Below the pieces are notes generated by a model that worked only from the letters and a program-made list of their open reading frames with translations, did not search any database and was not told the DNA's origin. From Elusimicrobiota bacterium (GTDB lineage Bacteria > Elusimicrobiota > Elusimicrobia > UBA1565): a stretch of 23,769 nt of DNA. Below, in pieces: positions 9,616 through 20,416 of the stretch. A program made the translations under genes and the position numbers. The stretch lies in assembly GCA_043819795.1 (NCBI GenBank), contig JBDREN010000124.1, positions 1 through 23,769 on the forward strand. Direction: 5' to 3'. Position 1 is the first letter of the stretch. Every line of letters begins with the position of its first letter.

Positions 9616-10785
9616 ATGGCGTCCGAAGAATCCGCGTTGATCCTCGTCGTCGAGGACCAGGCCAACCACCGGAAGGTCCTCAAGGGCGTCCTTGAGTCCG
9701 AGAAGTGGCGCGTCGCCTTGGCCAAGGACGCCGGGGAGGCGCGCAAGGCCATGAGTCTGGGGCCTTCTTTGGTGCTCACCGACCTCAAGCTGCCCGGCGC
9801 CGACGGGATGAGCGTCCTCAAGGATATCCGCGCCTCCCGCCCCGGCGTGCCGGTCATCCTGATGACCGCCTACGGCACCATACCGGACGCCGTGGAGGCG
9901 ATCAAGTTCGGGGCGTTCGACTTCCTGGCCAAGCCGCTCGATTTCTCGGAGCTCAAGCGGACGGTGAAGAAGGCTTTGGCCTACGCCTCGCGCGAGGAGC
10001 GCGAGTGGGTCATGGAGCCGGCCGCGGGCCCGCATCCGCTCATCGGCACGAGCCCCGCGATGGAGCGGGTGTACACGCTCATCCGTAAGGCCGGCCCTTC
10101 CGACGCGATCGTGCTCATCCTGGGCGAGACCGGGACCGGCAAGGAGCTCGTGGCGGCCGCCCTGCACGCGGCGAGCCCGCGCAAGGACAAGCCCTTCATC
10201 AAGGTCCACTGCGGAGCGATCCCGGCGGACCTGCTCGAGGCGGAGCTCTTCGGCCACGAGAAGGGCGCGTTCACCGGCGCCGTGCGGGAGAAGCCGGGCA
10301 GGTTCGAGCTCGCCGACGGGGGGACCTTGTTCCTCGACGAGGTCGGAGAGATGGCCCCGGCCATGCAGGTCAAGCTCCTGCGCGTATTGCAGAACGGGGA
10401 GTTCGACCGGGTCGGCGGCACCGGGACCATGCGCGTGGACGTCCGCGTGGTGGCCGCGACGAACGTGGACCTGAAGAAGGCGGCGGCCGAGAAGCGCTTC
10501 CGGGAGGACCTCTACTACCGCCTGAACGTCGTGCCCATCGACCTGCCCCCGCTGAGAGACCGCCGCGAGGACATCCCCGAGCTCGTGGGCTTCTTCCTGG
10601 AGCGCCTGGCCAAGAAGGGCGGGCGCCCCCGGCCGGAGATCGAGCCCGCGGCCATGAAGGCTCTGTCCGGAGCTCCCTGGGCGGGCAACGTGCGCCAGCT
10701 CGAGAACCTTCTCGAGCGGATCATGGTCCTCTTGGAGGGCGATGTGATCCGCGCGCGGGACCTCCCGGAAGAGGCTCTGCAATAA
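9616..10785 (+). CDS. Sigma54-dependent response regulator (REC + AAA+) lacking the C-terminal Fis-type HTH
   Basis: REC (VVED, LTDLKLP, MTAYG, KP); Walker [22 protein letters not shown]; Walker [31 protein letters not shown]; stop right after DLPEEALQ (389 aa). Confidence 0.92.
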
Positions 10786-12220
10786 GCTCCCGTACGGTCG
10801 GAGACCTGCGGAGCAGTTCTCCGGTCCTTCGCAGCAAGACCGGGAGCCCCAACAACATCGTCAAGGCCAGGCAAAGCGGCGCGATCAGCCAGCCCCACGC
10901 CGTGTAGGGCGTGCCGGCCCGGGCCAGGCGCACCTTCCCCAGGAGGACGCCGCTCTCTCCCGCGGGCAGCGAGCCCCGTACGCGGCCGAGCGGGTCGATG
11001 ATCTGCGAGACCCCGGAGGAGGCCGCCCGCGCGATCCAGAGCCCGGACTCCACGGCTCGCGCCGGCGACATGGCCGAATGCTGGGCGTGCTCCCAGGCCC
11101 CCCACTCCATGGGGTCGAGGTTGGTGACGACCAGGAGCTGGGCTCCCTGCCGGACCATCGCCCGCACGCCGTCCTCGAAGTCCAGGTCGTAGCAGATCTG
11201 CAGGCCCAGCCGCCCCAAGGGAGTGTCTACCGGGCGCGGATCGGGGTTCGCCGGGAGGTTGTGCTCCACGTACGGGACGGGATGGAGCTTGTCGTAGCTC
11301 CCCAGAGAAGCGCCTCCCGGAGCCAGCACCCAGGAATAGTTGCGCATCCGGTCCCCTTTGGCCTCGGGGAACGCCGCGGCTCCGATCACGGCCACCGAGC
11401 GGGAGTCACGCAGCTTGTCGGCGAGCATCTTCCGGTAGCGCTCTTCGCGCCCCGGGCGCACCGCGAACGCGTACTCGGGCCAGACCAGCAGGTCGGCCTC
11501 CCGCGCGCCCGGCCGCAGGCTGAGCGCAGCGAGCCCGCCCGCGTCGAAGCTCTCATCCTGCACCAAGGCCACTGAAAGCTCCGGGCCGCGCTCCACAGGA
11601 AGCTCCCTGATGCGCTGCCGGCCCAGGATGAACGTCACGCTCAGAACGCCGATCATGACGTAGGCGGGAGTCCTCTTGCCCTTCAAAAGCAGCATCGCGG
11701 CCGCGTTGGCCGCCGCGATCAAGCCGGAGAGCCCGTAGAGCCCCCATACGCTGATTGACTGCAGGACGGGAAGGTTCGCGATCTGGCTGTAGCCGAGCGC
11801 CAGCCATGAGCATTCGAGCCACCAGAGCTCGGAGCGGAAGTACTCGATCCCCGTCCAGACGACCCCGGCCAGCAAGACCCAGAGCGCTCCGGCGCCCGCG
11901 GCGGACTCGAGCCGCTTGAGCAGCGCCGCGTACAGGGCGAGCGAAAGCGCGAACAGGCACCAGAAGGCCGGAGCCGCCGCGCCGAAGATCTTCACGAGCC
12001 AGACCAGAGAGAAGGCGTAGAAGACCAGGCCGGCCACGGCTCCCAGGTTCGCGGCGGCCTTGGCATCCTCGGCGGAGGAGACGGCCCACAGCAGGGGCAC
12101 GAGCGCGAACCACGCCAGCGGCCCGAGGCCGACCGGCTCGAACGAGGCCGCGAGCATCAAGCCCGAGACCACCGCCAGGCACCAAGGGACGAACCTCCGG
12201 GCGCGCAAGTTCGATGTCAT
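10721..12220 (-). CDS. lnt: Apolipoprotein N-acyltransferase-like protein (Lnt family, nitrilase fold)
   Basis: N-terminal TM block (WFALVPLL, EYFRS, LGYSQ, GLYGLS); E-K-C triad in VWPEYA, YDKLHPVPYVE, QICYD; ATG 12220 with GGGAGG upstream (GTG 12229 is an alternative start). Confidence 0.85.
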   Translation of the reverse strand: MTSNLRARRFVPWCLAVVSGLMLAASFEPVGLGPLAWFALVPLLWAVSSAEDAKAAANLGAVAGLVFYAFSLVWLVKIFGAAAPAFWCLFALSLALYAALLKRLESAAGAGALWVLLAGVVWTGIEYFRSELWWLECSWLALGYSQIANLPVLQSISVWGLYGLSGLIAAANAAAMLLLKGKRTPAYVMIGVLSVTFILGRQRIRELPVERGPELSVALVQDESFDAGGLAALSLRPGAREADLLVWPEYAFAVRPGREERYRKMLADKLRDSRSVAVIGAAAFPEAKGDRMRNYSWVLAPGGASLGSYDKLHPVPYVEHNLPANPDPRPVDTPLGRLGLQICYDLDFEDGVRAMVRQGAQLLVVTNLDPMEWGAWEHAQHSAMSPARAVESGLWIARAASSGVSQIIDPLGRVRGSLPAGESGVLLGKVRLARAGTPYTAWGWLIAPLCLALTMLLGLPVLLRRTGELLRRSPTVRELIAEPLPGGPARGSHRPPRGP

Positions 12221-12225
12221 AACGT

Positions 12226-18971: not shown

Positions 18972-19005
18972 TTGGCACAAAAATTGATCCTCTTGGGGCG
19001 AAGGC
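18972..19005 (+). promoter_or_regulatory. Non-canonical sigma54-type (-24/-12) promoter, copy 1
   Basis: TTGGCACAAAAATTGATCC-tcttggg-GCGAAGGC; GG at 18974-18975, GA at 18986-18987; upstream of the radical SAM gene. Confidence 0.75.
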
Positions 19006-19033
19006 GTGGATTCCGGACCCTGGGAGGGAGACC

Positions 19034-20416
19034 ATGAAGATCCTGCTCGTTCTGCCCGCGATGGCGAGGTACCGCGTCGTTCCCGGCGGAGAGGTGCCGG
19101 AGCGCAAGATGCTCAGGTTCAGCGTGCTCGGCCTGACGACGGTGGCGGCGCTCACTCCTCCGGAGCACGAGGTGCGGATATGCGACGAGAACGTGGAGCC
19201 GCTGGATTTCGAAAGCGACGCGGACGTGGTGGGCGTCACCTTCATGGCCGGCCTCGCCCCGCGCGCCTACGAGATCGCGCGGGAGTTCCAACGGCGGGGG
19301 ACGCTCACGGTGGCGGGCGGCTATCATCCGACGCTCCTGCCGGAGGAGGCGTCCAGGCATTTCGACATCGTGGTCGTGGGGGAGGCCGAGGGCGTATGGC
19401 CGCGCGTGGTCCGCGACATCGAGCGAGGCGGTTTCCGCCGCGTCTACCGGAGCGATAATCCGCCGGACCTCGCGACGGTCCCCGTCCCGCGCCGGGACCT
19501 GCTGGAGCGCAACGGGCGCCACTACGTGACCACCAACGCGGTCCAGACGGGCAGGGGCTGTCGCCACGGGTGCAGGTTCTGCTCGATCTCGGCCTTCTTC
19601 AAGGGGACGCACCGCACGCGGCCCCTGGACAAGGTCCTGGCCGAGCTGGCGGGCGTCCCGCGGGGCTTCATGTTCGTGGACGACAACATCATCGGCGATC
19701 CGGACTACGCCAAGGCGCTCTTCCGCGCCATGATCCCCATGCGCAAGCGTTGGGTGAGCCAGTGCTCCCTGAAGATCGCCGACGACCCGGAGCTGCTGGC
19801 CTTGGCCCACGCGGCCGGCTGCCGCGGCCTGTTCATCGGCATCGAGTCGACGGCGGCGGAGAACCTGGCCGCGGTGCGCAAGGACATCAACGATCCCGGC
19901 GAGTACCGCGGGAAGATCCGCGTCATCCACGAGGCCGGGATCGCGGTGCAGGCGGGCATGATCGTCGGCCTGGACTCCGACGACGTCACCGTCTTCGAGC
20001 GCGACCTCCGGTTCCTCCAGGAGGCGAAGCTGGACGCGCTGCAGCTCGCGATCCTGACGCCGCTTCCCGGCACGAAGCTCCACGAGGACTTCGAAAAGGC
20101 CGGCCGGATCATCGACCGGGACTGGAGCCACTACGACTTCCGGCATCCGGTCATCCGCCCCAAGCGCATGACCCCTCAGCAGCTCCAGGAAGGCGCGGAC
20201 TGGCTCTACGACCAGTACTACCGCCTCGACCGCATCATCCTGCGCACGCTCCGCATGGCCTTCACGGTGGGCTTGACGTCGGCGTACCTCGGCTGGCGCC
20301 TGAACCTCACCTACCGCTACAACAACAAGCGGGAGGGGATCGTGGGCCGCAATCCCGCCGCCGGGAAGGCGGCTCCGGGCCCGATCGCCTTTCTCCAGGC
20401 CGAGGCCCTACAATAA
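19034..20416 (+). CDS. B12-binding domain radical SAM protein
   Basis: ATG 19034 with GGGAGG; N-terminal cobalamin-binding-type domain (DVVGVT, VAGGYHPT, VVGEAE); CxxxCxxC in GCRHGCRFC; FVDDNI; FIGIES; LTPLPGT. Confidence 0.92.
   Translation: MKILLVLPAMARYRVVPGGEVPERKMLRFSVLGLTTVAALTPPEHEVRICDENVEPLDFESDADVVGVTFMAGLAPRAYEIAREFQRRGTLTVAGGYHPTLLPEEASRHFDIVVVGEAEGVWPRVVRDIERGGFRRVYRSDNPPDLATVPVPRRDLLERNGRHYVTTNAVQTGRGCRHGCRFCSISAFFKGTHRTRPLDKVLAELAGVPRGFMFVDDNIIGDPDYAKALFRAMIPMRKRWVSQCSLKIADDPELLALAHAAGCRGLFIGIESTAAENLAAVRKDINDPGEYRGKIRVIHEAGIAVQAGMIVGLDSDDVTVFERDLRFLQEAKLDALQLAILTPLPGTKLHEDFEKAGRIIDRDWSHYDFRHPVIRPKRMTPQQLQEGADWLYDQYYRLDRIILRTLRMAFTVGLTSAYLGWRLNLTYRYNNKREGIVGRNPAAGKAAPGPIAFLQAEALQ

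Follow-up and report, generated by a model that had tools for sequence, protein, structure and literature searches.

Can target choice at a sigma54 promoter rest with the sigma factor when the activator lacks a DNA-binding domain? This question is raised by a locus in a 23,769-nucleotide (nt) stretch of Elusimicrobiota DNA (contig JBDREN010000124.1 of assembly GCA_043819795.1; "the window" denotes this whole stretch). Here, three genes encode: a compact, 343-amino-acid (aa) sigma54-like factor; a membrane histidine kinase; and an AAA+ activator that ends without a helix-turn-helix (HTH). In the textbook view, one sigma54 binds all promoters and activators choose targets via enhancers. Considered together, the comparative data suggest that the three genes form a conserved module that likely acts as an enhancer-free switch for a small set of membrane-upkeep genes, a reading that we consider fairly probable. 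The strongest new evidence is a contrast in enhancers, in which the target promoters of the module appear to have none in common.

Conservation of the module

Among the 101 genomes of the order, an orthologue of the activator is present in 17, at 68-81% identity (next-best class at most 55%), and an orthologue of the kinase sensor region (at least 49% identity) in 18. All 17 activator genomes also hold the kinase and the sigma; for 4 of these sigmas, the assignment came from identity and adjacency and not from a place in the tree. In 16 of the 17, the sigma gene immediately precedes the kinase gene. The activator gene comes after the kinase in 4, sits at another place on the contig in 5 and is found on a different contig in 8. 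This agrees with the co-occurrence anticipated by an earlier, sequence-only reading of the locus, which had also noted, correctly, that the sigma stop (TGA) and kinase start (GTG) overlap as GTGA at 17910-17907.

The window activator consists of REC, AAA+ and lid regions, carries GAFTGA at residue 217 and ends 2 residues past the lid match, with no HTH_8 match in Pfam. The other 4 activators of the genome that holds the window (G000; 4.99 Mb assembly, 90% complete) carry HTH_8. All 16 complete orthologues, the window's included, stop after the AAA+ lid (HTH status outside G000 was taken from tail length and by eye), which rules out a local mutation as the origin of HTH loss. GAFTGA is kept in these complete orthologues, one of which has GSFTGA. 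The sequence-only reading described the activator accurately in all three respects: GAFTGA, no HTH, and a tail-to-tail arrangement with the left target operon.

In a tree built from 156 non-identical compact sigmas, with matches shorter than 300 aa left out, the window sigma falls in a 13-sequence subclade, A1, nested in a larger clade A (support 99). An activator lies in the fetched stretch at 105 of the 156 loci; 87 of these activators are long-tailed, 14 have tails shorter than 30 aa and 4 are partial. The other 51 have none in the fetched stretch, many being cut by contig ends. Activators beside compact sigmas keep GAFTG-type loops and group according to the clade of their sigma, with a Spearman correlation of 0.67 between the two trees; relatives do not count as independent here, and one swap of partners can be seen. 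HTH-bearing activators accompany other clade-A sigmas and are unrelated to that of the window; those of the sister lineage are 32-36% identical to the window activator and keep GAFTGA. This suggests that A1 represents an existing sigma and promoter type paired with a new kinase and activator. Tails shorter than 30 aa are also seen in activators of clade-B sigmas (L070, L166, L172, L179, L180, L189, L191 and L207) and at L204, which suggests that the HTH was lost there independently of the window lineage.

Target promoters without a shared enhancer

A computational dyad search covered 170-250 nt upstream of the promoters. In the sister lineage, whose activators bear an HTH, one dyad is common to 43 of 81 promoters, where shuffled sequences reached 7-9 at most. 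It belongs to the palindrome TTTTCAAATGAAAA, whose centre is near -119. In the module genomes, the best dyad reaches 9 of 43 promoters, inside the shuffled range of 7-9. The best word of an 8-mer test had a count of 9 there (8 at most after shuffling) and stems from the kinase coding end beside several of the promoters. The palindrome is present at 57 of 80 sister-lineage promoters (a circular count, the pattern having been derived from that set), at 8 of a further 26 and at 1 of 43 module promoters. No shared enhancer was found upstream of the module promoters, in line with the enhancer independence foreseen by the sequence-only reading.

Sister clade-A loci (for example L041, L050 and L042) carry the palindrome in tandem, as TTTTCA(AA/TT)TGAAAA, at a median near -119. 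The tandem palindrome is likely the enhancer of the diverged HTH-bearing activators. Clade-B promoters served by HTH-bearing activators show a different palindrome by eye, also on contig C63 of the window genome. The single module-genome promoter that keeps the sister-lineage palindrome is L241 (G182), a genome in which no sister-type sigma was found.

An activator without an HTH could also be tethered: held at promoters by the sigma complex, by the membrane kinase, or by hetero-oligomerisation with an activator that does have an HTH, in the manner of FleT and FleQ. Such FleT/FleQ hetero-oligomers are described (PMC11999139), and the activator orthologues are more alike than the corresponding sigmas (51-60% identity), which could mark an extra interface. 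The 43 module promoters share no upstream motif, so a DNA-bound partner is not indicated, and several of them abut or overlap the kinase coding end. We judge tethering to be improbable.

Promoter motif and regulon

The two motifs that bracket the sigma-kinase pair, TGGCATAAAAATTGATCC and TGGCACAAAAATTGATCC, are identical at 17 of 18 positions and are directed away from the pair, as the sequence-only reading had it. At its core, the motif reads GGCAY followed by an A-rich spacer and (T/A)TG(A/C)T(C/T), with a variable T before GG. The 18-mer pattern is found in the 4.99 Mb assembly at the two window places only; of 500 block-shuffled versions of the window, 2 had as many as two hits to a looser pattern. 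Scanned with a position weight matrix (PWM), the genome holds 4 sites scoring at least 30, with the next at 19.5; two shuffles gave no site at 22 or above. A genome-wide motif is thereby ruled out. The two sites outside the window precede a small membrane-like protein (C48:9479), a homologue of which bears the motif in another module genome, and a CAAX-type protease (C120:16022). The regulon is small and not purely local; the proposal of a local regulon holds for its few sites and rare motif, and gives way at these two strong sites on other contigs.

Across genomes, strict patterns hit 34 of the 46 with a clade-A sigma, as compared to 6 of the 55 without one, and motif sites occur in 16 of the 17 module genomes. 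Real motif hits number 93, versus 9 for reversed patterns. In module genomes, the genes behind the sites encode DUF2339 proteins (11) and B12 radical SAM proteins (8), both counts including the window genes, as well as Lnt (4) and VIT/VWA proteins (2), and are otherwise mostly singletons. The same targets keep the motif even on other contigs, and the predicted co-occurrence of the motif with radical SAM and Lnt genes is seen in the module genomes. The motif lies ~35-100 nt before start codons. In several relatives (e.g. L035 1938 (-) and L214 near 10900 (+)), the promoter overlaps the last kinase codons and the stop. At L035, lnt is split over two frames.

The -12 base had been taken as a private mark when A. 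This does not survive comparison. In the window genome, A is present at both window sites and C at the C48 and C120 sites. Before DUF2339 genes, A occurs in 6 promoters and C in 5, and both forms occur in 5 module genomes. As A and C both precede orthologous targets, even within genomes, A at -12 is ruled out as a private determinant.

Self-activation of the sigma gene was likewise rejected, no motif facing it having been found in ~320 nt upstream at 17 loci (by eye and with a strict pattern). A sigma70 consensus scan gave 0 sites; -10-like hexamers are seen by eye.

Sigma paralogues and promoter dialects

The window sigma is not the only sigma54 of its genome. A second compact paralogue (C63:24169-25203), 33-35% identical, is present, and the motif, with its 4 sites, is confined as described above. 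The second sigma lies at C63 ~20960-25400 (L274) with a divergent PAS kinase and a REC-AAA-HTH activator. Its sites are canonical-like and stand before its own gene and before a downstream operon of redox genes (by eye).

The two types of sigma are associated with different promoter sequences, with nominal positions, numbered by the usual convention, and a filter that fixed GGCA-N6-TTG and AT-rich context alone. In 59 clade-A sites, the GG and spacing of -24/-12 promoters are kept, with C (35) or A (20) at -12, an A-tract at -19 to -16 (A-17 in 43/59) and TC at -11/-10 (C-10 in 38/59). Clade-B sites instead have Y-17, G-16 (16/24) and C-12, with A-17 and C-10 in 2/24 each. The proteins differ in parallel: the recognition helix reads SxxNR in clade A and STxSR in clade B, and the RpoN box RRSxxQYR and RRTVNxxR, respectively. 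Judged by this association, the sigma paralogue types appear to differ in promoter dialect. The clade-A dialect is common to HTH-bearing sister lineages, suggesting that it is older than the loss of the HTH. The idea of a private paralogue with its own promoter variant is upheld insofar as a second paralogue has a different dialect, and fails insofar as the dialect is shared with these sisters. A further sigma clade (L165, L174, L178, L155, L188 and L208) has its own promoter, TTGGCAAAGT(C/T)GTTGCTAT, in 6 of 6 loci.

A separate sigma is a plausible source of specificity, since HTH-less activators act without enhancers and a truncated activator fires most sigma54 operons. Of 20 sigma54 operons predicted in Salmonella, 16 were fired by such an activator (PMC3844500). 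For the same reason, insulation from the second paralogue would require selective contact between sigma and activator. If the window activator is instead promiscuous, it would fire closed complexes of both paralogues, with weak cross-activation tolerated; the sigma would split the promoters, and the channel would not be insulated. Three observations point this way: DctD250, which lacks REC and HTH, activates the promoters of many activators, ~10-fold more weakly than the cognate at glnK (PMC3844500); the window activator comes from another lineage than the activators of the sister sigmas; and one genome, G178, holds one compact sigma and one strong activator match, a Helicobacter-like layout that needs no selectivity. 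Most module genomes, however, keep a second compact sigma whose activator has an HTH tail (10/10 complete examined), the targets of the second sigma are unrelated (a redox operon in the window genome), and selectivity between paralogues and activators is documented in Cereibacter (Rhodobacter) sphaeroides (PMC11999139). Promiscuity seems rather unlikely on balance, while deserving more weight than tethering.

The compact sigma

Sigma54_DBD (PF04552) is the sole Pfam match of the 343-aa sigma (60.9 bits versus a cut-off of 22.8). Over residues 109-343, the ELH-HTH and RpoN box are homologous to canonical sigma54 (HH probability 99.9), and the C-terminal DNA-binding region also matches sigmaN structures in the PDB. 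The best-matching folds are likewise sigmaN. A structure model (predicted local distance difference test, pLDDT, 91 with a deeper alignment; 76 in the first model) aligns over 227 residues with E. coli sigmaN residues 12-473 (Z 14.5, root-mean-square deviation 7.0). The alignment begins at model residue 8, equivalent to sigmaN residue 12, in a Region I-like segment. In the aligned sets, the compact family spans 339-392 aa, as compared to 440-506 aa in 55 canonical proteins. Two marks of a canonical RpoN are lacking: the core-binding domain (PF04963) and a TIGR02395 (full-length RpoN) score above cut-off (64 bits versus 277.35).

Named homologues of this sigma are from Elusimicrobiota, and atlas clusters suggest similar proteins in Chloroflexota. 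In a 301-genome sample of the phylum, Sigma54_DBD matches occur in 96 genomes (1-4 copies each), while the core-binding domain (Sigma54_CBD) is found in 1 of 301, and in 0 of the 101 genomes of the order. The single canonical sigma54 (L003 592-1977, genome G111) resembles Omnitrophota proteins (74%), and its sequence points to a transfer or a binning error. The sequence-only reading had taken it for a mini-sigma and private paralogue and had proposed a check for a separate canonical rpoN. As no Sigma54_CBD match was found in the window genome (90% complete) or the 101 order genomes, a canonical rpoN was rejected as housekeeping partner; the compact form, present phylum-wide, appears to be the usual sigma54 of Elusimicrobiota and no extra beside a normal one. 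Two long proteins, P0122 (914 aa) and P0123 (839 aa), contain a whole compact sigma at the start, followed by a signal-peptide-like stretch; these are probably run-on gene calls.

A protein of this kind might no longer be an activator-dependent sigma, and could act as a DNA-binding regulator or a bypass sigma at -24/-12 boxes, its co-occurrence with activators reflecting shared history. The absence of a Pfam match for the core-binding domain would fit, as would the alignment of open-complex structures from ~residue 149. This is countered by the AAA+ activators at 105 of 156 compact-sigma loci, with their GAFTG-type loops kept, by the structural alignment of the Region I-like segment, by the distance of the motifs from start codons, and by the presence of activators in genomes where no other sigma54 was found. 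We regard this alternative as very improbable.

Proposed mechanism and its weight

If the module is an enhancer-free switch, its operation would likely involve: production of the sigma-kinase pair from an ordinary promoter; a holoenzyme of the compact sigma waiting at clade-A promoters, GGCAY-(A-tract)-TTG(A/C)TC; sensing of a membrane signal by the 7TM/GAF-like region of the kinase, leading to phosphorylation of Asp56 of the activator; and oligomerisation of the phosphorylated activator, which would open the promoters from solution, as FlgR does. Formation of a holoenzyme by the compact sigma is presumed at the second step; the core polymerase genes rpoB and rpoC lie on contig C132. Target choice would rest on the sigma if the activator prefers the window sigma over the other paralogue. 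Overall, the module appears to operate in the manner of dedicated sigma54 paralogues.

The genes switched on probably serve membrane upkeep, DUF2339 being the Arc3A family and Lnt handling phospholipid. Lnt consumes phospholipid and releases lysophospholipid. The response could be one to membrane damage or one of lipid remodelling.

Several points weigh against this proposal. The selectivity of the activator between the paralogues appears to be the main uncertainty, and the swap of activator partners argues against tight sigma-activator coevolution. Polymerase binding by the compact sigma is assumed, as the core-binding domain is barely and Region I weakly aligned: Pfam returned no match to PF04963 (Sigma54_CBD) or PF00309 (AID), the canonical core-binding domain aligns through a single HTH-like repeat (residues 109-137, probability 88), and the HH match to Region I is weak (probability 27, E 7e-4 versus 0.058 for the control). 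Support for A1 is 0.995 in FastTree and an SH-aLRT of 86 in IQ-TREE. Linkage cannot be judged in the 8 of 17 genomes that carry the activator on another contig. One genome (G265, L230), 100% complete, has a kinase orthologue with no matching sigma or activator found. Of the 55 genomes lacking a clade-A sigma, 6 still have motif hits, and two of these 6 (3 and 5 sites) are only 70-75% complete. Finally, the PWM was trained on regular-expression hits of the same loci, the window motif having served as the model for the expression, and the motif and dialect counts include related genomes that are not independent of one another.

Features of the locus

The features of the window are collected in Table 1. 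The reading frames of the left run, DUF2339-M48-lnt, overlap, and lnt overlaps the 3' end of the activator gene by 65 nt. The motif-to-start distance is 65 nt for DUF2339 and 60 nt for the radical SAM gene. The motifs had been said to face envelope genes; this holds for the DUF2339/M48/lnt side and may not apply to the radical SAM protein, for which no NCBIfam model scored above cut-off. In an NCBIfam profile search, Lnt scores 154.1 bits against a TIGR00546 cut-off of 132.9. The kinase has seven-transmembrane (7TM) and GAF matches below the Pfam threshold. The 1050-aa protein has a 30% homologue near the sigma in one relative.

Table 1. Features of the window, in order of position.
Feature	Position	Strand	Basis or remark
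MscS channel	239-1375	+	
Glycoside hydrolase-like protein	1441-2748	+	
Patatin-like phospholipase, then 1050-aa membrane/spermidine-synthase-like/TPR protein	5470-9565	+	Directly upstream of activator
REC-AAA+ sigma54 activator without HTH, 389 aa	9616-10785	+	Pfam; Asp56, Walker A/B, GAFTGA
lnt, apolipoprotein N-acyltransferase, final gene of left target run	10721-12229	-	TIGR00546; E/K/C motifs
M48 family peptidase (HEIGH)	12226-13062	-	PF01435; behind DUF2339 in one related locus too
DUF2339 polytopic membrane protein, first gene of left promoter	13052-15814	-	PF10101, 97.5 bits
Left -24/-12-type promoter motif TGGCATAAAAATTGATCC	15863-15880	-	PWM score 35.0, top of the genome
Membrane histidine kinase, 662 aa, GTG start overlapping sigma stop	15922-17910	-	HisKA + HATPase_c
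Compact sigma54-like factor, 343 aa	17907-18938	-	ELH-HTH and RpoN box; N-terminus Region I-like, middle domain reduced in size
Right -24/-12-type promoter motif TGGCACAAAAATTGATCC, back to back with sigma gene start	18973-18990	+	PWM score 31.6
B12-binding radical SAM protein (CxxxCxxC)	19034-20416	+	PF02310 + PF04055
Stand-alone receiver protein with long N-terminal extension	20488-21159	+	
Collagen-repeat secreted protein	21353-22582	-	

Implications

A broader proposition, which we put forward tentatively and with less than even confidence, is that Elusimicrobiota possess several mutually insulated sigma54 channels, based on a compact sigma in which the core-binding domain has been rebuilt. 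The window channel would dispense with both the enhancer and the DNA-binding domain of the activator, its specificity residing in the dialect and in a private sigma-activator handshake, and enhancers would have been lost at least 2 times in the phylum.

Sister lineages share the dialect, one with an HTH and an enhancer-like palindrome and the other with neither, and this contrast makes the discrimination of activators between sigma54 paralogues directly testable. The family would indicate the minimum of core-binding domain with which a sigma54 can function, and may be a source of small parts that need no enhancer, for use in orthogonal sigma54 expression, so far engineered by mutation of the RpoN box (PMC12096077). 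It also offers a functional lead for DUF2339, the Lnt paralogue and the B12 radical SAM enzyme as a co-regulated set.

Relation to known systems

A 2011 survey listed Elusimicrobium minutum without sigma54 (PMC3162934), and a 2025 survey identified sigma54 by three Pfam domains, with Elusimicrobiota absent from its main text (PMC12316311). The literature searched, to which the supplementary tables of both surveys and most subscription papers did not belong, contained no account of the compact family or of these parts in combination. Each principle has a precedent; it is their combination that was not found. The suggestion that the arrangement is undescribed is upheld to that extent, and qualified by the paralogue-specific sigma54/activator pairs known in C. 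sphaeroides (PMC11999139).

With the canonical sigma54 of E. coli and Aquifex, the compact sigma shares the ELH-HTH, the RpoN box and a GAFTGA-bearing AAA+ partner, and probably also a Region I-like N-terminus and a -24/-12-type motif. It differs in being shorter, in lacking CBD and AID matches in Pfam and in scoring below the TIGR02395 cut-off.

Extracytoplasmic function (ECF) sigma factor modules comprise a paralogue encoded with its sensor, a small regulon and envelope-type targets, and the present module resembles them in all of these. Here, however, the fold is unrelated, Pfam finds no sigma70 regions 2/4, no anti-sigma was seen, and the module is controlled through its kinase and AAA+ activator. 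No promoter of the sigma's own type faces its gene in the upstream stretches covered.

The most frequent target shares its Pfam family, DUF2339, with Arc3A of P. aeruginosa, a likeness at family level. Arc3A guards against a phospholipase toxin by preventing the accumulation of lysophospholipid and is under Gac/Rsm control there (PMC8926400).

The FlgS/FlgR pair of Helicobacter pylori and the CtcB/CtcC pair of Chlamydia trachomatis resemble the window pair in combining a kinase with a REC-AAA+ activator that has no DNA-binding domain. These two species presumably have a single rpoN each, and no specificity problem arises, because one activator serves one canonical sigma54. FlgR lacks a DNA-binding domain and acts without binding DNA (PMC3930126). 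CtcC is a REC-AAA+ activator without such a domain (PMC7482065), and Chlamydia has one sigma54 activator (PMC3162934). In the window genome, by contrast, a second sigma54 paralogue and four HTH-bearing activators coexist.

The RpoN proteins of C. sphaeroides, which we take to be of canonical type, provide a precedent for dedicated paralogues. RpoN1/NifA, RpoN2/FleQ(FleT) and RpoN3/AprX are each described as a paralogue with a cognate activator and a promoter subset, in a discrimination that involves the -11 base and sigma-activator contacts; how activators tell the paralogues apart is treated there as still open (PMC11999139). The likeness lies in more than one sigma54 paralogue per genome (two in the window genome) and in promoter sequence associated with the paralogue. 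The activators of C. sphaeroides have DNA-binding domains, and FleT needs FleQ, whereas here the activator has no HTH and no shared enhancer was found. Here, the sigma is also ~120 aa shorter, and the dialects differ mainly at -19 to -16 and at -11/-10.

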